Source: a virus. From it: a stretch of 64,000 nucleotides of DNA. A program made the position numbers and the translations under genes. Shown piece by piece: positions 19,323 to 41,520 of the stretch (positions within the stretch are counted from its first letter, which is position 1; every line of letters begins with the position of its first letter). The notes below the pieces were generated by a model. It was not told the DNA's origin, did not search any database, and saw nothing but the letters and a program-made list of their open reading frames with translations. Location: the UHGV virus genome UHGV-1378516; one strand, given 5' to 3'.

Positions 19323-19822
19323 TAATTAAACCTTACTTTTTGTTTAAGGACTGTTGAATGGTTACCAGATTCATCTACCACATTTACAATCATATCATAT
19401 ACTTTGCCTTTGACAAGTACTTTGTAATCATTTTGTGAAAAAATGTATTCAAGTCTGTTTGTTTCTTTATTAACTGTCATTGGAGATTGAAATGCAGTGT
19501 CGAGGGTAATGAAAGCGGCTTCAATGCTATTAACATTGATACGTTTATTCTCGCAGTTATATAACTTTACACCCAAAAGGCATGAACTGTCAAATGGAAT
19601 TTTAACAATTTCACTACAATTTCCTGAAATAAACGGTTTTCCACTCATTGGAGCATCAAGTAACCTGCAAATAGTGAAAACGTCAGAGGTTTCACCATCA
19701 CTTACATAACCTGAAAGGCTGACCCTTGAGCCAGCCTCTACAGATAATTTGTCAGTGATAATAAGAACACCTCTATACGAATGCACTCGTGTAGCATTTG
19801 AAATAGAGATAACTTCAGCCAT
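19322..19822 (-). CDS. hypothetical protein
   Basis: 166 aa ORF in head module. Confidence 0.4.
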   Translation of the reverse strand: MAEVISISNATRVHSYRGVLIITDKLSVEAGSRVSLSGYVSDGETSDVFTICRLLDAPMSGKPFISGNCSEIVKIPFDSSCLLGVKLYNCENKRINVNSIEAAFITLDTAFQSPMTVNKETNRLEYIFSQNDYKVLVKGKVYDMIVNVVDESGNHSTVLKQKVRFN

Positions 19823-21297
19823 TATTTATTTGCCTTATTTGCTGTGCTTGGGTCTTTCGCTGAAGGTGTCTTTGCAGTACCTTCTCCAGCGGTCTTATAA
19901 CCATCTCCTGAGCGGCTTTGACTATTTGGAGAAAGCTTTTCAGATACTGGCTGAGATTCATCAGCAGGAGGAAGACCAATATGCTCTCTAAGTTTGTTAG
20001 ATAGTTCTTTGTCAACTTCCAAAGCACCTACTGCAACAGTTTTCTGAATATAAGAACCAATTGCTTCAAGGTCTGGAGTTTCGATATCATCATATGTAAT
20101 TTGTACGTGTTCTTCATCATCCCACATATTAAGAGCATAAGTCTGTGCAACTAAATCACGGTTAATTACGTTCTTAATCTGCTTAAGCAGAATATCTACT
20201 GACATTGCTAGTAAGCTTGTCTTAGAATCTGCAAGAGAGAATGAACCGTATTTTGACTGACCCATAGCAAGAACATCTGACATAAATGCCATCATAATCT
20301 GCTTGGAATATCTGTCAATAATAGAACCTGTATCGTATGCTTTAGCACCCTGTCTAGAAACTAATGAGAACTCAAAAATATCCTCTTTAGTATCTGGGTC
20401 GATATATCTAGGCCAGATTAAACCTGCTCTGTCATTAGCAATCATATCATTAACAACAGTTTTGCAGTATTGTACGAAAGCTTTCTTTTCAGGTTCTGCA
20501 TTTTCATCCAAATAATCTGGTGGTAAACCAATCTTTGGCATACCTACCAAGTCTCTTGAAACACCAACAGCTTCGTACTCTTCAATCTGAACTTTATACT
20601 TCCACGGTACATAAGCATTAAGTAATGGTGAACGACCTTCTGGGTTTCCATATTCATCGTCATACTTAAACAGCATGAATTTAGCTCGTGGAAGTTTTCT
20701 TGTTAGTGGTCTTTCTCCGAGATTAATTGCTCCAGCAATATGTGAAACATTTCTCAGATTCTGCCTAACACCTGTAACTTTTCTAAAGTCTTCGTCAAAA
20801 TACCACTTATCAAGTGTTGATTGGTTTCTGATTGGTAATTTAGCCCATCCAATTAGACCATCATCAAATTTAGACTGGTACTTTCCTTTTTTACCCTGAC
20901 GCTTCTTATAAACTTTCTCGTTAACACAGAACCCATAAGTACAGAATGACATTACAGAATTAATAAAATCTGCCCAATCATGCTCCATGTCATCCATTAA
21001 AGAATTAAAGAAGTCTGCTCTTTCAAGCATTTTAGGGTCTTGCTCTTTTCCCTTTGGAGGTACGAATCTCCAGTTGACTTTTCTGACAAACATCTTAATA
21101 ATATTTACAGATGCTGCTACAGCAGGGTCACGCATCATTAATTGGAAAGTTTTAATACTTTCAGGGAATCTTAGTGCCTGACGAGGTTCTTCATAGATTC
21201 TTCCATTCTTAACCTTCAGACCCAAAGAACCTACTTCACCCATTCTAAATGGTGGTAAGCTTTCTTGTGTTTCTGTAATATCTGCCATTCTTCTCAC
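19822..21297 (-). CDS. portal protein
   Basis: 491 aa, immediately downstream of terminase large subunit. Confidence 0.6.
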   Translation of the reverse strand: MRRMADITETQESLPPFRMGEVGSLGLKVKNGRIYEEPRQALRFPESIKTFQLMMRDPAVAASVNIIKMFVRKVNWRFVPPKGKEQDPKMLERADFFNSLMDDMEHDWADFINSVMSFCTYGFCVNEKVYKKRQGKKGKYQSKFDDGLIGWAKLPIRNQSTLDKWYFDEDFRKVTGVRQNLRNVSHIAGAINLGERPLTRKLPRAKFMLFKYDDEYGNPEGRSPLLNAYVPWKYKVQIEEYEAVGVSRDLVGMPKIGLPPDYLDENAEPEKKAFVQYCKTVVNDMIANDRAGLIWPRYIDPDTKEDIFEFSLVSRQGAKAYDTGSIIDRYSKQIMMAFMSDVLAMGQSKYGSFSLADSKTSLLAMSVDILLKQIKNVINRDLVAQTYALNMWDDEEHVQITYDDIETPDLEAIGSYIQKTVAVGALEVDKELSNKLREHIGLPPADESQPVSEKLSPNSQSRSGDGYKTAGEGTAKTPSAKDPSTANKANK

Positions 21298-21304
21298 CTA
21301 GCTA

Positions 21305-22921
21305 TCAACGTCTAAGCCCCTCATATGGGTTTCCTCTCACTAAGTCTGTGTGAGCACCCATTGATGGTGGCTTGAATAATTTAACTTCGTTAAGACTGTT
21401 GAAAGCATCACTGGTAGCATCCACTTGGTCATCTTTAGTTTTGCCATCACCACAAAAGCCTTCAAGCTCTTGAAAATAAGCTTCGTTCCAACTACCTCTC
21501 AAGACTTTTACAAGTCCAGCTTCAGAAGCAGCAGAAAATCCCGCAAAGCGGGTAACTTTATCTTTATTTGTTGGTTTAGCTCTTGCACGATAACCTTTCT
21601 CGGCAAGTTTCCTGATGAGGGATGTTGCGTAGGATTTACCAGCAGCGCCTGGGTCTTGAGGGATAAAAATACCAGTTCGCTTACCGTCACTTTCAGCAGT
21701 CAAATTAATTTGTGTTTCGACTCCAGAGGGTCTATCTCTAAATCTTACTACATCAATGATATAATAGCAACCGTCTTTTTTAGATTTACCCATCTTAACA
21801 CCTGCTGTCCAGTCTGGATTAGGGTTAATCTCAGATGGTAAAGTTGCTGCTAAGTCCCATGCTCTAACATCGAATACATCTTCTGGGAGTGAATCAACAA
21901 TCTCACACCATTGTCTTTGCCAATAGTTTGAACCTTCTGCACGAGCCTTCCAGTTACCGAAACGAAGTCTTGCAACGTTTACAGGGGTGTTGTTTTCCAA
22001 CTTACCACGGTACTTAGGTTCTAAGAAGTCAAGGATTGGGTTATCATCAATCGTACCAGAGATAAAGGTGTATGTTTGAGGAATCTCAAGAGGGAACATT
22101 TCAAGAATCTTGTCTCTCTCCCAATCAGAAACCATCACACCGTCATTCATTACATACCAACGAATACGACCACACTTTTCAGGGTCTGGATAACCTTCTT
22201 CATCTAAGAATGGTTCTACCCAATCATAAATAAAGTGGTCTCTGTCTGGGTTCATGGAAATCTTCATGTATGAATCACCTTCAGCACCAGAACGCAGACG
22301 TGTTTGTAGGTATGAAATCTGTGAAGCAGAGAAGTGTGTACCTTCGTCAAAGTAAATAGCTGAGTATTCAATACCCTGATGACCTTCAGCGTGTTTTTCA
22401 AGTTCTAAATAAGTAAACTTGATAGTTGCCCCAGAAGGGAATGTGATAGTCATCTTCTGCTCGTGAGGAACCCCACCAAACTTACCAAATAGTTTCTTTG
22501 CAGCAGGCCATAAACCACCTTGTAGCTGTGTTGTATTTCGACGGAAATATACAGCATTATAATTAGGGTCTTCAATAAACCTTAAAGAATCCATTAACAA
22601 TGCAGCAGTTTTACCAGCACCAGCAGCACCACCATAGAGAACCAAGTCAGCATTAGTATTTAAAAAGACCTCTTGAGAACCCGGCTGAGGGGCTACATAA
22701 TTCTTATCAGTCATCAATTTGAAGATAAGTCTAACTTGGTCTGGTGTGTATCTTAATAAAGTCAGAATTTGAGTTGGAAGGAATTTAGAGGGGTCTTTAC
22801 CGAATGATTTGATAATTTCTTTTACTTCATCAGAAAGCCCCAACTCTCCAGCTAGGACTTTCCTAACATCTTCCACTCTCTTCTGCTTAACAGCATTTAA
22901 GTCCATTAAGCACCTCCGCAA
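21305..22921 (-). CDS. terminase large subunit
   Basis: 538 aa; Walker A ..YGGAAGAGKT.. near N-terminus, acidic nuclease-like C-terminal half. Confidence 0.85.
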   Translation of the reverse strand: MRRCLMDLNAVKQKRVEDVRKVLAGELGLSDEVKEIIKSFGKDPSKFLPTQILTLLRYTPDQVRLIFKLMTDKNYVAPQPGSQEVFLNTNADLVLYGGAAGAGKTAALLMDSLRFIEDPNYNAVYFRRNTTQLQGGLWPAAKKLFGKFGGVPHEQKMTITFPSGATIKFTYLELEKHAEGHQGIEYSAIYFDEGTHFSASQISYLQTRLRSGAEGDSYMKISMNPDRDHFIYDWVEPFLDEEGYPDPEKCGRIRWYVMNDGVMVSDWERDKILEMFPLEIPQTYTFISGTIDDNPILDFLEPKYRGKLENNTPVNVARLRFGNWKARAEGSNYWQRQWCEIVDSLPEDVFDVRAWDLAATLPSEINPNPDWTAGVKMGKSKKDGCYYIIDVVRFRDRPSGVETQINLTAESDGKRTGIFIPQDPGAAGKSYATSLIRKLAEKGYRARAKPTNKDKVTRFAGFSAASEAGLVKVLRGSWNEAYFQELEGFCGDGKTKDDQVDATSDAFNSLNEVKLFKPPSMGAHTDLVRGNPYEGLRR

Positions 22922-23350: not shown

Positions 23351-23426
23351 TGGAGAATCCGAAGGGACTCGAACCCTTATAAACCTGTTTTGCAGACAGG
23401 CACATAGCCATTTCTGTCACGGATTC
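23351..23426 (-). tRNA. tRNA-Cys (GCA)
   Basis: Hand fold: CCA encoded, T-arm AAGGG-ACTCGAA-CCCTT on plus, 5-bp anticodon stem, loop gives GCA. Confidence 0.7.
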
Positions 23427-23430
23427 AAAT

Positions 23431-23523
23431 TGGAGGAAGATACCAGACTTGAACTGGTACACCGATTTCTCAGCTACTGGCAGTTTAGCAAACTGCTCCC
23501 TTACCTTTTAGGGTTAATCTTCC
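23431..23523 (-). tRNA. tRNA-Ser (GCU), long variable arm
   Basis: 93 nt; T-arm ACCAG-ACTTGAA-CTGGT; perfect anticodon stem GCAGT/ACTGC; matching acceptor. Confidence 0.7.
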
Positions 23524-23525
23524 AT

Positions 23526-24260
23526 TTATTTCTGTAATACGTTCTTCATTTCTGGTGTTGCAATAGTGTCAATTACACCAGTTTTACAAGCATCATCAAA
23601 CCAGTCTGGTAAGATACCTGCTAAGAACCCATTGATATTCGTTTTAAGGTACTCTGCAATAAGAGCAGCTTCTTCTTCAATCATCTGCACAACTTCATCT
23701 GCATAAGCTGTAATTTTTGAAATACCTTCATTAATCTTACTAACAGCTTGGTTAGCTAAATCAGAAATAGTATCAAGACCTTTGTCAATAGCGTCTTGTA
23801 AGTCACTTAATACATCATTAACACCGTCTAGTGCACTGTTAATCGTATCAATAGCTTTTTGACCATACTCTGTAGCAACACCCATAATACCACTAAATGG
23901 TGTACAACCAACTTGTTCACCTGCTGCACCCATAACATTAGAATAGCCTTTTGCTACCTGCATACGTGATGAGAACTCATCAATGGACTTTTGACCGTAA
24001 TCTGTCAGTGTTTTGGTAGTTGATGTAGTGCTTGTCAGACTCGTGGTAAAGCTGTTAAGCAGAACTGTTGTGAGTCCAGCAGCAACAAGCTTATCCTTTA
24101 CTGTAGGGTCTGATACAGAGCTAATAGAGCTTACAAGTGATGTAGAGGCAGCTACGGTTCCGCCGAGAACTGCTGCACCAGTAATAAGGGGGTTAGAAAA
24201 CCCTTTACCAGTTTTTAAGAGATTGAAAATCTCCTTACCTTGTTCTGTCATCTCTTTCAT
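23526..24260 (-). CDS. hypothetical Ser/Thr-rich protein embedded in tRNA array
   Basis: Track ORF 23526..24323 begins with GTG overlapping a tRNA; trimmed to in-frame ATG at 24260. Confidence 0.45.
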   Translation of the reverse strand: MKEMTEQGKEIFNLLKTGKGFSNPLITGAAVLGGTVAASTSLVSSISSVSDPTVKDKLVAAGLTTVLLNSFTTSLTSTTSTTKTLTDYGQKSIDEFSSRMQVAKGYSNVMGAAGEQVGCTPFSGIMGVATEYGQKAIDTINSALDGVNDVLSDLQDAIDKGLDTISDLANQAVSKINEGISKITAYADEVVQMIEEEAALIAEYLKTNINGFLAGILPDWFDDACKTGVIDTIATPEMKNVLQK

Positions 24261-24276
24261 TAAGCACCTTTGAAAT

Positions 24277-24353
24277 TGGTAGTCCAGTGGGATTTGAACC
24301 CTCTTCTCATGTTTTTCAGACACGCGCTTTAACCATATAAGCTACTTGGACTA
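24277..24353 (-). tRNA. tRNA-Phe (GAA), tentative
   Basis: T-loop ATTTGAA; perfect acceptor pairing; anticodon stem has one mismatch. Confidence 0.5.
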
Positions 24354-24358
24354 TAAAT

Positions 24359-24435
24359 TGGGGTGACCTACGGGATTTGAACCCGTATAGACCATGTTCA
24401 CAGCATGGGTCATTACCATTTATGATAAGGCCACA
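24359..24435 (-). tRNA. tRNA-His (GUG)
   Basis: Perfect T-stem ACGGG/CCCGT and anticodon stem CCATG/CATGG; loop gives GUG. Confidence 0.7.
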
Positions 24436-24465
24436 TTTAAGGACTCTCGTAAGAATCCTTAGAAG

Positions 24466-24541
24466 TGGCAGCGGCATAAGGATTTGAACCTTAATAGGAC
24501 AGCTTCAGAGACTGTTGCATTGCCAGTTATGCTATACCGCT
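24466..24541 (-). tRNA. tRNA-Gln (CUG), tentative
   Basis: T-arm TAAGG-ATTTGAA-CCTTA; anticodon loop gives CUG; D-arm GCAT/ATGC. Confidence 0.55.
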
Positions 24542-24546
24542 AAATT

Positions 24547-24618
24547 TGGTACTCCATATCGGATTCGAACCGATACATAACACAGATTTTAAGTCTGGCC
24601 TCTCTGCCAATTGGAGTA
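24547..24618 (-). tRNA. tRNA-like, atypical (short D-arm; anticodon possibly UAA)
   Basis: Clear T-arm ATCGG-ATTCGAA-CCGAT and acceptor pairing but only ~72 nt; anticodon arm ambiguous by eye. Confidence 0.35.
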
Positions 24619-24627
24619 ATGGAGCAT

Positions 24628-24703
24628 TGGCGGGGGATGTTGGAATTGAACCAACTTCTTCGATTTCAAAGACCGAGGTTTTAACCTTGTAAACTAATCC
24701 CCT
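24628..24703 (-). tRNA. tRNA-Gln (UUG), tentative
   Basis: T-arm GTTGG-AATTGAA-CCAAC; anticodon loop gives UUG. Confidence 0.55.
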
Positions 24704-24711
24704 TTAAATCT

Positions 24712-25269
24712 TTACTTTCTTAGTGGATGAATAAAGAATGCCAACATAACTCTTTCCCTTGAGAATGCTCTTTCTTCTGGGACAACGCTTTTAAGTTTCC
24801 ACCCAACATAAATTCTCCAGTAAAATTGTTTACCAAAGATTTTGATTGATGGCACAAAAGCGAATAACCCCCAAGCATTACTGTTCCACATTAGGAGATA
24901 ACCAGTTTGATTATCTTCAGGGTTAGAACTTACGTTGATATTACCTTTCCACTTAGTAACGTCTTTTACATCTCTTCCTAACACATGGTAAGAGAAGTTA
25001 TAAGCTTTGTTTCTCCAGAGCCATCCAACTCTCTGCATGTAGACACCAAGCTTACCAATCTTTCTAATCTTAGCCCATCGTTTGATATGACCTGCATCAC
25101 CATCAATTGGGTTGTCATAAGTCTCCATCCATCTGAACCCGAAAGGCAAGTGTCCTTTCTTCTCACTGTAGAATGGAACTACAAAAGGTGCTAAGATAAC
25201 TGCTAAGATTGCTGCAAATGGCTCTAACAAAGCTAAGAAAATCCATGAAGCATACTTTAAGTATCTCAT
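24712..25269 (-). CDS. hypothetical membrane protein embedded in tRNA array
   Basis: 185 aa, hydrophobic N-terminal segments (..WIFLALLEPFAAILAVILAPFVVPF..). Confidence 0.5.
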   Translation of the reverse strand: MRYLKYASWIFLALLEPFAAILAVILAPFVVPFYSEKKGHLPFGFRWMETYDNPIDGDAGHIKRWAKIRKIGKLGVYMQRVGWLWRNKAYNFSYHVLGRDVKDVTKWKGNINVSSNPEDNQTGYLLMWNSNAWGLFAFVPSIKIFGKQFYWRIYVGWKLKSVVPEERAFSRERVMLAFFIHPLRK

Positions 25270-25508
25270 TGTCTAATCCTCGTAAGGAGGTAAATGTTAT
25301 TATTAGTTTCTAAACCTTCTGGTAAAACTGTCTCAAAAATAACACTCTTCAGATGTCTACCACCAAAACAATCACGTATAAATCTTTCTACTCTAGCGGG
25401 GTCACATAAGTATCCCACTTTTAAGAAAATGTGGTGTTCAACACCAATGACCCTGACAAACTCAATACTCTCACAGTTTTCATGTTCAACTACTGTTAAT
25501 GTTTGCAT
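25266..25508 (-). CDS. hypothetical protein
   Basis: 80 aa, ATG at 25508, stop/start overlap with downstream ORF. Confidence 0.45.
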   Translation of the reverse strand: MQTLTVVEHENCESIEFVRVIGVEHHIFLKVGYLCDPARVERFIRDCFGGRHLKSVIFETVLPEGLETNNNIYLLTRIRQ

Positions 25509-25525
25509 AGTATCACCTTTTTATC

Positions 25526-25601
25526 TGGCGCAGGATAAGGGATTCGAACCCCTATTAACAGCTTCGTAGACTGTTGCTCTTTCCATTTGAACTAATCCTG
25601 C
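25526..25601 (-). tRNA. tRNA-Arg (ACG)
   Basis: T-arm AAGGG-ATTCGAA; anticodon loop gives ACG; perfect acceptor. Confidence 0.65.
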
Positions 25602-25606
25602 AAAAT

Positions 25607-25684
25607 TGGTGTTCCAAGACGGATTCGAACCGTCACTAATACAAGGTTTGAGCTTGCATCCTCTGCCAATTGGGATACTGGAAC
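25607..25684 (-). tRNA. tRNA with anticodon CAA (Leu-type) but short variable arm
   Basis: Perfect T-arm GACGG-ATTCGAA-CCGTC; 5-bp anticodon stem with U33/A37 gives CAA; A73; only ~78 nt. Confidence 0.5.
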
Positions 25685-25685
25685 A

Positions 25686-25760
25686 TGGTACTCACTAAAG
25701 GACTTGAACCTTTTTCTTCATCTTGTAAGGGTGATGTTTTACCATATAAACTAAGCGAGT
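25686..25760 (-). tRNA. tRNA-Val (UAC)
   Basis: T-arm AAAGG-ACTTGAA-CCTTT; anticodon stem TCATC/GGTGA; loop gives UAC. Confidence 0.65.
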
Positions 25761-25856
25761 ATGAAAGAGGTCTGGAGTTGTGCCGCTAACTCAACTCCGT
25801 GGAATTTGTTACGGTCTTCAGTTGACTCAAAGCGGTCTTTCACTTGACCTCTGAAT

Positions 25857-25932
25857 TGGTGCTCCCACAAGGACTCGAACCCTGATAAGTTGCTTACAAG
25901 GCAACCGTAATAACCAATTATACGATAGGAGC
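25857..25932 (-). tRNA. tRNA-Thr (UGU)
   Basis: Perfect anticodon stem GTTGC/GCAAC; loop gives UGU. Confidence 0.7.
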
Positions 25933-25939
25933 ATTAATT

Positions 25940-38699: not shown

Positions 38700-39248
38700 A
38701 TGGAAAAAGATAACTTAAAAGATGTTGAAGGTAACTATCTAGTCCTTGATTGGAGTGATGCTCAAGAAGCACTCTCTGAAGAAAGTCTTGACAGATTAAA
38801 ACAGATTGTTTTTGCAGTACGGGGTTACAGAGAAGTTAAAAATGGTAAAGACCCACTTGAAGGAGTCTTTGTAGAGAAATCTTATCCGTTCTATGAAGAC
38901 ACTTTGCAGAAAGTTAAGATGTACTTTAGACAGAAGAACCGTAAAGTGGTCACTATGGTATCTCTTGGTGGACAGAATATGTCTGTGATGGAAGATATTA
39001 ATCCTAAGAGACCGAGTAAAGGTATCTGTATAAAAATCACAGGACATGAAGAGTATATCTCAGTGGATGACTTTAGTGCATTCTGTAATGGCTCTTGCGT
39101 CTTTAATGGTTTTCACTATGATATCCGAGTGTACCCAATTAAGGGTGATGATATCATGATGCAGGTATTCGATAATAACAATGGATTTACTCATTTTTAT
39201 CAGACAACCAAGTCATCATTGAAAACAGTTCTGGAAACACTGATTTAA
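38700..39248 (+). CDS. hypothetical protein
   Basis: Track ORF 38655..39248 starts with TTG inside upstream gene; trimmed to first in-frame ATG; followed by strong terminator. Confidence 0.45.
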   Translation: MEKDNLKDVEGNYLVLDWSDAQEALSEESLDRLKQIVFAVRGYREVKNGKDPLEGVFVEKSYPFYEDTLQKVKMYFRQKNRKVVTMVSLGGQNMSVMEDINPKRPSKGICIKITGHEEYISVDDFSAFCNGSCVFNGFHYDIRVYPIKGDDIMMQVFDNNNGFTHFYQTTKSSLKTVLETLI

Positions 39249-39259
39249 AATATCTTAAG

Positions 39260-39290
39260 AGCCCCCTTAATTGGGGGCTTTTTAATTTTT
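39260..39290 (+). terminator. rho-independent terminator ending plus-strand block
   Basis: AGCCCCC-ttaatt-GGGGGCT + TTTTTAATTTTT. Confidence 0.7.
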
Positions 39291-40876
39291 ATAAAATTTT
39301 ATCGGTTGTTCCAACCTCTGGGTCACCATCATATGTGAATAAAATATCTATCCTTCTTAACAACCTTCTTAATCTTACTCTCTATATAGTTATATAGTAC
39401 TATATAGTATCTTAGTAACTATCTAGTGGTCTTAATAGCCCTCTGTATAACCCTTCTAAATAGCCCTCTAAACACTCTTCTAACAAGCCTTCTTAACAAC
39501 CTATACAATCACCTTAACCATCTCTCTATACCCTCTTAGAAGCCCCTATACACCTCTTAATCTCTAGGTTAGCTATGATACCCTCTATAGGTGTTCACTA
39601 GGTATTACTAAGCCTCTATATAGACTGTTTTAACAAACTTAACAGGAATATCTTCACAGACCTTATCTCACAAGGTCTAACACGGTACTAACAAGGTATC
39701 TTATAAGCCTGTTTCTACCTGTATTTTTAAAAGACTGTCTAGGTAATTATTCAGATTTTTAAAATTTTTATAAAATAGGACTATCAAGTCATTTTTTAGG
39801 GTCTTTGAAGGAACTCAAAAATATCTGTAGGAGATGTATATCTGCTTGGTAGCCCTTAACAGCTCCCTTACAAGTACTTTGCAAAATTTTAAAATATCCT
39901 TAACAATCTCTTAACAGTTCTCACATCTTCTTAACAACTCTTCAAAGGTCTTAACAGTTTCTTAACAGAACTAACAAGGGCTTAACAGTTTTCTAACAAG
40001 TGCTGAATAGGTTTTACAGAATCTTAACAGATGACTAACAAGAGCTAACAAGTTAATTTTAAAGAGTTATTTTGTTAGGGATTGGTAACAATACCAATTA
40101 GATAACTAACAAGTTCCTAATAAGTGTTTAATCTTTTTAACAAGCTATTAACATGGTCACTATCTCTTTTCTTATCGTTCCCTTTCTCTCTTAGTGATTC
40201 TCTAAACATACCTTTTAAAAACTCTCTATAGCTCCTTGTAAGCTCTTTTAAATCTCTTCCTAGTATCTACCCATCAACTGTATGGATAGCTCTTTATAGG
40301 GCTTTACAGGAGCTTTTAAGGCTATGTCAAAGACTCTTACAAGGCTTTTACGTGGTCTTAACAGAGATTTAACAAGGGGCTAACAAGTCTCTAACAAGAA
40401 TAACTATGTAGGGATTGTTAAGAAATTGTTAAGAAAATGTTAAGGGGGCTAGCATTTACGTAACTTTATAGCCTTTTTTACGTTACTTTGAAGTAACTTT
40501 ATAGCCCCTATAACATGCTTTTTAGTGACTATCAAGGGGATTGTTTAGTTATTCACAAGATACTAGCCAGCCTATAAACTTTCACCCTTATAAGATTCTT
40601 TTAAGGCTCTGGGAAGCTCTATAAAGGGCTTTTTAGAGTGGGTTAATATGATTGCTTAAGTTAGGTTGATAAGGCTGTTATAGAGCTTTATAGAGCGTTT
40701 TAGTGGTTGCCCTTCCCTTTCGGATTATGGGCTTGTATTTAAGTTGATTTGATAAAAGGTTATAGAGTAGACTATAGAGTTATTGCTTTTAAGGTATGGG
40801 ATAGATTCTATCGAATTAGTGGGATAGATTCTGGGAAGGAAAGGAAAGGGTTTTAATAGAGGCTATTACATAGACG
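39291..40876. repeat. ORF-free repeat-dense region (candidate origin/iteron or regulatory hub)
   Basis: No ORF of 60 aa or more on either strand; over 30 copies of YTAACAR heptamers with orientation flip near 40400; CTCTATA/TATATAG family; short direct repeats. Confidence 0.6.
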
Positions 40877-40899
40877 TAAAAAGCCCCATTTAAGGGGCT
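40877..40899 (-). terminator. rho-independent terminator ending minus-strand small-gene cluster
   Basis: Minus-sense AGCCCCU-uaaau-GGGGCU + U5. Confidence 0.6.
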
Positions 40900-40937: not shown

Positions 40938-41186
40938 TTAGTTATGACCGTCTTTATCGTAATAAAGAGAAATAATTTTATCGCCCCAATAGTGCCAATG
41001 TGTACCATCTTTCACCGCTTCTTGAATAGCTGCAATCCAAAAATCCGATTCAGGGTTATAATCCTTGACAATCTGGCTAACAAGGCTTTTCACCATGTCA
41101 AAAGCACTGTCAGTGCCTATAATGTCAAATTTAACGTCCAGAGAGTAGAAGCCAAATTCGTTAACAGTTGCGCGGATAGTAGCCAT
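40938..41186 (-). CDS. hypothetical small protein (cassette-driven)
   Basis: Track ORF 40938..41429 reads through the upstream cassette; real start is ATG at 41186 after SD AGGAGA. Confidence 0.55.
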   Translation of the reverse strand: MATIRATVNEFGFYSLDVKFDIIGTDSAFDMVKSLVSQIVKDYNPESDFWIAAIQEAVKDGTHWHYWGDKIISLYYDKDGHN

Positions 41187-41282
41187 TTTAGAATCTCCTA
41201 GTTTAAGGGTTTTATTTAGTGGGGTGGGGGTTATCTCCTCCCCGTTGATTAGTAATTTACTGCATATTGGCGTATGTTGCAA
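41187..41282 (-). promoter_or_regulatory. type-1 promoter/5' stem-loop cassette, copy 1 (variant stem)
   Basis: Minus strand TTGCAA-17-TAAATT, G-rich stem-loop, conserved ACTAAATAAA..CTAGGAGATTCTAAA, ATG. Confidence 0.6.
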
Positions 41283-41520
41283 GCCTTTTTTCGTTGTATT
41301 TTGTAAGAATCTCACAAGATAAAACATCGAACTTTGTAACCGCGTTGCCTTTGTCGAGGTCAAAAAAGCCAAACGCTTTACCATCTTTGAATCCGACAAC
41401 TTCGTAAGACTCTTTGATGATTTCATCATTGAACAAATCGCTTTCGATACGGTGGAATAATGCTACATCTTCTTTGTCGGTTGCAATTTGTAAAAGTGTG
41501 GTTAATTCTACGTTTTCCAT
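41257..41520 (-). CDS. hypothetical small protein (cassette-driven)
   Basis: 87 aa; ATG directly after cassette. Confidence 0.55.
   Translation of the reverse strand: MENVELTTLLQIATDKEDVALFHRIESDLFNDEIIKESYEVVGFKDGKAFGFFDLDKGNAVTKFDVLSCEILTKYNEKRLATYANMQ

Follow-up and report, generated by a model that had tools for sequence, protein, structure and literature searches.

A 1.6-kb interval (positions 39291-40876) of the 64,000-nt window analyzed here, one strand of the virus genome UHGV-1378516, is crowded with oriented copies of the heptamer YTAACAR. By orthology with related phages, its central part (39848-40449) is a short direct terminal repeat (DTR) with non-permuted ends of the T7 type, and the sequences on either side (39291-39847 and 40450-40876, hereafter flanks L and R) are the unique non-coding stretches that lie beside the DTR at the two ends of the genome. 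We thus read the interval as the terminal region of a linear, non-permuted genome, found in mid-contig since the assembly was opened elsewhere, with one collapsed copy of the DTR. The explanation that we favor, a terminal region whose DTR carries phased heptamers that guide terminase cutting and duplication of the repeat, is likely when taken as a whole.

A direct terminal repeat shared with relatives

In BLAST searches, the interval matched 256 phage records (76-94% identity), nearly all Felixounavirus or close relatives infecting Escherichia, Salmonella, Shigella or Citrobacter; judged by these matches, the window is a Felixounavirus (Felix O1-like) genome. Several GenBank records start or stop within the interval, and both termini of these were fetched. 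In four of them, an exact repeat is present at the two ends: D4 (PP886228, 581 bp), with a DTR reported from PhageTerm (PMC11737134); ZX4221 (OR498728, 591 bp); Pr103Blw (MW481326, 581 bp), annotated as a 'short direct terminal repeat region' (PMC8303462); and the Mooglevirus HP1 (OK539913, 570 bp), with an annotated repeat_region. In all four, the start of the repeat aligns with window position 39848 (GGTAGCCCTTAACA...) and its end with 40449 (...AATGTTAAGGGGGC), the fixed boundary nucleotides being common to the four phages. The record of EcSzw_1 (MH791413) does not include the repeat at its ends and was opened at the equivalent of window 39849. Since the repeats of four relatives share their boundaries with 39848 and 40449, the 1.6 kb resolves into flank L, one copy of the DTR and flank R. 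An earlier, sequence-only reading of this DNA had named a packaging or terminal-repeat boundary as its fallback, and it is this fallback that agrees with the relatives, boundary for boundary. BPS15Q2 was also considered as boundary evidence; its record was opened near the boundary rather than at it (~40463 and ~40505) and was not counted.

DTRs are already known and annotated in relatives of the genus. Besides Pr103Blw and D4, DTR packaging has been published on the basis of PhageTerm for the Felix O1-like phage Ro111lw (613 bp; PMC6454146). For Felix O1 itself, the genome paper deduced 'short terminal repeats' from the size of the genome, and the only direct repeats that it lists are ≥24 bp long and located elsewhere (PMC3185647). 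The Felixounavirus and Mooglevirus DTRs (Pr103Blw, Ro111lw, HP1 and D4) are the orthologous element, with the same boundary sequences, flanking genes and non-coding flanks. The repeat described here differs from them in its length of 602 bp, due in part to a 22-bp palindromic insertion, and in its presence as a single copy in mid-contig, where short-read assemblers commonly put DTRs (PMC10438801).

Heptamer arrays and boundary motifs

Exact YTAACAR occurs 27 times in the interval, 24 times on the plus strand and three times on the minus strand. Based on the 73 copies in the other 62.4 kb, only 1.86 would be expected (Poisson P = 3e-22), and the densest 600-bp bin holds 19 copies inside the interval vs. 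a maximum of four elsewhere. The sequence-only reading was thus right about the enrichment and about the predominance of one orientation; its figure of more than 30 YTAACAR copies is too high for exact matches and is reached with the looser TAACA core (33 copies, 28 + 5). Most of the exact heptamers (21 of 27) lie inside the DTR, the other six in flank L. Tandem Repeats Finder detected arrays with an 11-bp period. Copies in the longer array (array A, Table 1) are phased (R = 0.87 at 10.4 bp vs. 0.78 for the 99.9th percentile of the null) and therefore lie on one helical face.

The shorter array B is separated by a 17-bp gap from three inverted heptamers, and the flip in orientation previously noticed near 40400-40440 is accounted for by these copies. 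The switch, taken for an origin-like feature in the sequence-only reading, coincides exactly with the right DTR boundary, and mean identity among relatives over 40400-40449 is 0.92-0.96. The 9-mer CCCTTAACA is present only twice in the 64 kb, in mutually inverted copies, one per DTR boundary, and it is because these copies sit at the two boundaries that the orientation flips. With an inverted CCCTTAACA just inside each boundary, both 5′ ends of the virion DNA should therefore read 5′-G..CCCTTAACA. TGTATATCTGCTTG, directly outside the left boundary, has no second copy in the window and is invariant in 13 of 13 aligned relatives. We consider TGTATATCTGCTT, which adjoins this boundary, a candidate cleavage-recognition sequence. 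The boundary sequences as such are invariant in 13 relatives from three genera, and a direct G(G/C)TAGC is present at both DTR boundaries.

A long-range inverted repeat (39889-39926 and 40406-40443; 38 nt, 79% complementary) connects the start of array A with the inverted heptamers at the right boundary, and a single-stranded DTR could fold into a panhandle. The DTR plus strand has the strongest folding z-score of the set (-3.5), which is explained by pairing of array A with the inverted copies beside the right boundary; the paired arms are the conserved motifs themselves.

To assess conservation, we used 36 unique DTR sequences from GenBank and IMG/VR (among loci L001-L050). Heptamer columns were 0.935 identical vs. 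0.817 for the spacers (Mann-Whitney P = 7e-11), and TAACA cores were found at aligned positions in 22-35 of 35 relatives (26-35 for the cores of array A); on this comparison, the CTTAACA arrays are under purifying selection. The terminal non-coding DNA was 0.71-0.83 identical in relatives labelled Mooglevirus and Suspvirus, vs. mostly 0.60-0.65 for the adjacent genes (38700-39248 and 40938-41186) in the same phages, the exception being the gene at 40938-41186, which reached 0.91 in EP1 and EcSzw_1. Flank L alone was 0.75-0.82 identical in these relatives, vs. 0.60-0.65 for the neighboring gene at 38700-39248. The idea that the terminal region forms a low-GC island in Suspvirus was dropped: a preprint gives a genome GC content of 47%, but the genes beside the terminal region are only 36-39% GC.

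The Erwinia phage phiEa21-4 (Kolesnikvirus) is absent from the BLAST matches to the interval. Its syntenic ORF-free gap (ORF, open reading frame) contains TGTTAAG 11 times, TTAACA on both strands and an orientation switch, and it retains TGTATATCTGCTTAG, the counterpart of TGTATATCTGCTT, together with a right boundary resembling ...AAATGTAAAAGTGGC|TAAC. This comparison is based on synteny, motif content and short conserved islands, sensitive BLAST giving only weak matches (60-66%); by these measures, the heptamer and boundary design spans four Ounavirinae genera. We predict a DTR of ~458 bp for phiEa21-4. It should be noted that gp32 of this phage (222 nt) lies inside a stretch rich in TGTTAAG and GGTTAAG that continues the terminal design (L053 8473-9913; NC_011811 16.4-17.9 kb), and may not be a real gene.

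DTR lengths in the 36 relatives range from 567 to 658 bp, with clusters at ~570, 580, 591, 602, 613, 623 and 633 bp. They have a period of 11.0 bp (R = 0.79, a value reached by none of 5000 random sets), while no such quantisation is seen in the lengths of flanks L and R of these genomes (R = 0.38 and 0.47, respectively). Indels of 10-48 bp are frequent among the relatives' terminal regions, and changes in DTR length have two sources: 11-bp units, which are gained or lost, and a palindromic mini-element of 22 bp, GGGATTGGTAACAATACCAATT, with the layout ATTGGTA-N4-TACCAAT and a TAACAA heptamer in its center. Among relatives, GGGATTGGTAACAATACCAATT occupies at least six different positions in the terminal region, once inverted, with 0-3 copies per phage; it was also seen in L013 (three copies, at offsets 206, 255 and 723 from the DTR start), L035, L017, L006 and L023. 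In the loci examined, it was found only within the terminal non-coding region, and those insertion points that were examined fall within or next to TAAC/TTAA heptamers. The element has the appearance of an operator-like unit that moves or duplicates. The 11-bp quantisation could be explained by unit slippage alone or by selection for rotational register.

The two flanks bear motifs of their own. The CTCTATA/TATAGAG family pointed out previously is indeed strand-biased, with CTCTATA 4:0 in favor of the plus strand in flank L and TATAGAG 4 vs. 1 by orientation in flank R, and both short direct repeats of flank R, TGGGATAGATTCT and TTTACGTAACTTTATAGCC, were recovered in two copies. Flank R mirrors flank L in base composition and motif orientation, and in virion DNA each flank would sit just inside the DTR copy at one end. 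With such mirror-symmetric flanks, the DNA should therefore look alike when read inward from either physical end, which suits something that acts from the DNA ends more than it does an origin or a centromere.

Table 1. Coordinates of the terminal-region elements and of selected surrounding features in the window.
Feature	Position	Strand	Description
DTR, GGTAGCCCTTAACAG...AATGTTAAGGGGGC	39848-40449	unstranded	602 bp; single copy in assembly; boundaries identical to those of relatives' DTRs
Flank L	39291-39847	unstranded	GC skew -0.29 (C-rich); CTCTATA ×4 on +; CTTCTAA-type repeats; 6 YTAACAR
Flank R	40450-40876	unstranded	GC skew +0.28 (G-rich); TATAGAG ×4 in - orientation; TTTACGTAACTTTATAGCC ×2; TGGGATAGATTCT ×2
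Array A	39855-40153	+	14 exact YTAACAR plus degenerate copies; spacing 9-11, 20, 31 and 44 bp
Array B	40358-40397	+	four YTAACAR; spacing exactly 11 bp
Inverted trio	40415-40446	-	TTGTTAA at 40415, TTGTTAA at 40426, ATGTTAAGGG (ATGTTAAGG at 40437); 11-bp spacing
CCCTTAACA, copy 1	39853-39861	+	starts 5 nt inside left DTR boundary
CCCTTAACA, copy 2	40438-40446	-	3 nt inside right DTR boundary; is the last inverted heptamer
TGTATATCTGCTT, then G at 39848	39835-39847	+	adjoins left DTR boundary from outside; run invariant in 13/13 aligned relatives
Mini-element GGGATTGGTAACAATACCAATT	40078-40099	unstranded	22 bp, dyad-symmetric; insertion relative to most relatives
Direct repeat TTTACGTAACTTTATAGCC ×2 (family D11)	40455-40506
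Direct repeat TGGGATAGATTCT ×2 (family D16)	40797-40832
Intrinsic terminator of plus gene block	39257-39282	+	10-pair stem with 6 G-C pairs, then T run
Intrinsic terminator of minus gene block	40882-40899	-	terminator-like hairpin
Portal gene	19822-21297	-
Large terminase gene (TerL)	21305-22921	-
tRNA cluster	23351-28562	-	26 genes

A proposed platform for terminase cutting and competing explanations

Most likely, the arrays serve in cis as the platform at which the terminase cuts and the DTR is duplicated. Replicative concatemers would carry the DTR once, by analogy with T7 (PMC10438801). A phage protein, either the terminase or another recognition partner, would coat the phased heptamers on one helical face and direct the nuclease to the motifs at both boundaries. 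Each strand would be nicked once, the nicks being ~600 bp from one another, and strand-displacement synthesis would then leave every packaged genome with a DTR at both ends. We also entertain a more specific and quite unlikely version, in which the phased CTTAACA array would work as a nucleoprotein 'ruler', both CCCTTAACA copies being held on the same helical face by a single complex, wrapped or looped, with the opposite-strand nicks ~57 turns apart. If true, this would explain why DTR length changes in ~11-bp steps while the flanks vary freely, and the 22-bp mini-element (2 × 11 bp) would be tolerated because register is preserved. It would also be a previously undescribed way to define a terminal repeat, in a myovirus group without a recognisable small terminase.

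Several points weigh against the favored explanation. The ends of this phage are deduced from those of orthologues rather than from its own virion DNA. No small terminase has been recognised in the Felix O1 group (PMC3185647), and no protein is known to bind CTTAACA. The offsets of the two CCCTTAACA copies from their boundaries (5 nt and 3 nt) differ by 2 nt, and recognition could be modelled differently on the direct G(G/C)TAGC that the two boundaries share. In T7, a genome-wide insertion screen showed that insertions near the ends are mostly tolerated individually, except at positions of the repeat boundary, which are critical (10.1101/2024.10.10.617714); individual heptamers may therefore be redundant or dispensable. 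Lastly, two matches to the DnaA-box consensus and an AT-rich stretch at 39745-39784 leave a little room for an additional origin function.

The T7 insertion data also favor an alternative in which the heptamers bind a phage or host protein for protection against RecBCD-type nucleases, for synapsis of the two DTR copies in recombination into concatemers or for control of ejection, the cuts being set by the boundaries alone. Such a role would have the same anatomy as one in packaging (location in the DTR, phasing, conservation and mirror symmetry), making the two computationally inseparable, and it is consistent with the unusually good folding of the single-stranded DTR. Against it, no candidate protein is known, a scan of the interval for host-factor motifs found no Chi (GCTGGTGG), IHF consensus or GATC, and the CCCTTAACA copies exactly at the two boundaries tie the heptamer family to the cut sites. 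We consider this alternative possible, if unlikely.

A replication origin or partition site was the explanation preferred in the sequence-only reading, and it received no specific support. The heptamers would in this case be initiator-binding iterons beside an AT-rich unwinding element, possibly in addition to a terminal function. They are phased and oriented, in a region that is non-coding and strongly conserved, with a 40-mer of 87.5% A+T at 39745-39784 and DnaA-box matches at 39334 (-) and 40549 (+) (2 vs. 0.22 expected). However, the 7-bp core at 11-bp spacing does not resemble 17-22-bp iterons, the Suspvirus relative does not retain the DnaA boxes, and a sigma-70 promoter scan of the interval (10 sites vs. 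9.3 expected) gave neither an excess of promoters to prime or activate an origin nor any sign of internal transcription units. No initiator, replication or Par gene was found among the four flanking gene products scanned, which match only PHROG families of unknown function. Moreover, it is at the DTR boundaries, not at the unwinding element, that the orientation switches and the rarest motif variant occurs. An origin is improbable.

Two further explanations are disfavored. A functionless spacer, in which slippage-prone simple repeats pile up where no gene constrains the sequence, would account for changes in copy number by whole 11-bp units and for the spread in DTR length; it is very improbable given that motif positions are more conserved than spacers, that the heptamer and boundary elements persist in phiEa21-4, outside the BLAST-matched records, and that the non-coding DNA outconserves the two adjacent genes in most of the distant relatives. 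Genes for small RNAs or small proteins, or a plasmid-type partition site, are just as hard to credit. Some annotators call coding sequences (CDS) of 30-55 aa in the interval and the minus strand of flank R folds with a z-score of -3.1, but the largest ORF is 37 aa, the frequent indels of 10-48 bp speak against small proteins, and Rfam at permissive E-values returned only sub-threshold, leader-like matches on the terminator hairpin, at chance level. Structured RNA was also sought by folding z-scores and rejected, the values being modest and the strongest (-3.5) due to the inverted heptamer arrays. As for partition, no product annotated as a partition protein was present among the four flanking ones, to which the search for Par proteins was confined, and related phages are described in two papers as lytic or as devoid of lysogeny genes (PMC11737134, PMC8303462).

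Known systems, genome context and significance

The closest analogue of the packaging platform proposed here is the terminal repetition of T7 with its CCTAAAG arrays. In the T7 sequence, we found CCTAAAG three times in the 160-bp repeat and eight times in an adjacent array at 13-bp spacing; the T7 arrays are reportedly called SRL and SRR, names said to come from Dunn and Studier in 1983. Both systems have a short, exact, non-coding direct terminal repeat with an oriented 7-bp repeat inside and beside it, and a single repeat copy at the concatemer junction in T7 has its presumed equivalent here. The differences are considerable. The T7 motif (CCTAAAG) is unrelated to CTTAACA, its repeat is 160 bp long vs. 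~600 bp here, and its spacing is 13 vs. 11 bp. The T7 arrays lie mostly outside the repeat, vs. mostly inside here, and lack inverted copies. The T7 left end has early promoters, whereas both neighboring gene blocks read toward the ends in the present case, and T7 is a podovirus, of another family and with another terminase. By sequence, the T7 and Felixounavirus heptamers are analogous, not homologous.

Other systems share fewer features. The pac site of P1 has TGATCA/G hexamers flanking the cut, lambda has the R sites of cosB and SPP1 has pacL and pacR; in each, as proposed for the present case, a terminase cut site has on its sides several short repeats of mixed orientation that bind protein. 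Those phages are headful or cohesive-end packagers with an identified small terminase and far fewer repeats, whereas no binding protein is known here. The herpesvirus 'a' sequence (DR1-Ub-DR2 array-Uc-DR1) is likewise a terminal direct repeat of a few hundred bp, made variable in length by short tandem arrays, with signals close to each boundary that place the cut at a fixed distance from them. It differs in belonging to a eukaryotic virus, in its GC-rich 12-bp units and in its additional inverted internal copies, and there is no sequence relation. Iteron origins (lambda ori, plasmid iterons) also have direct, helically phased repeats beside an AT-rich stretch; their units are 17-22 bp long and lie beside or inside the initiator gene, in contrast to a 7-bp core, with no adjacent initiator, in an element at the DNA ends.

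The plus and minus gene blocks beside the interval are both transcribed toward the physical genome ends, each stopping at a terminator. Both hairpins announced by the sequence-only reading were confirmed, and so was its claim that no ORF of ≥60 aa lies between these convergent terminators, where the limit of 37 aa holds for any frame. Relatives do not encode conserved proteins here either: almost all of the 256 matching records are without annotation across the interval and a few have small, unsupported CDS, two of which were checked and had no PHROG family. On the minus-block side, the 163-aa ORF at 40938-41429 (-) is over-extended, residues 82-163 alone matching phrog_4559, a family of 82 aa; the gene proper, a homologue of wV8 gene 27, probably occupies 40938-41186. 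On the other side, the protein of 38700-39248 is 89% identical to the product of a Felix O1-like gene in GU169904.1, a 147-kb record named 'Staphylococcus phage SA1' that also matches the terminal region and is probably chimeric or contaminated.

Two observations concern the rest of the window. A Ro60-like RNA-binding gene (phrog_850, 28728-30143) lies directly upstream of the tRNA cluster, some genes of which have been speculated in a preprint to be Y RNAs. In addition, GATC has no site in the 64,000 nt vs. ~181-208 expected, and CTGCAG (24.6 expected), CAGCTG (14), ATGCAT (13.8), GGTACC (9.9), GAATTC (8.3), CCATGG (7.6) and GAGCTC (5.2) are also absent. The lack of GATC and of these 6-bp palindromes suggests strong avoidance of restriction and Dam sites; GATC is not mentioned in the Felix O1 genome paper (PMC3185647).

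The internal architecture of the DTR appears to be undescribed. Papers on the DTRs of relatives give length and packaging class, not the arrangement of heptamers inside (PMC8303462, PMC6454146, PMC11737134). The literature searched contained no earlier account of the heptamers of Felix O1-like phages or of what the T7 arrays do, and the papers searched make no mention of the inverted 9-mers at the boundaries, the mirror-image flanks, the conservation across four genera or the 11-bp quantisation.

For annotation, our data put the actual termini of the phage genome near positions 39848 and 40449, and provide an explanation for a conspicuously 'empty' 1.6 kb that most GenBank records of Felix O1-like phages leave unannotated or fill with spurious small CDS. 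For Salmonella and E. coli, these phages are in wide use as tools of typing, biocontrol and therapy, and in their engineering, insertions or rebooted genomes must retain the terminal cis elements. With its conserved boundary elements, phased heptamers and 11-bp quantisation, the terminal region offers mutable targets for the study of DTR generation in a myovirus.

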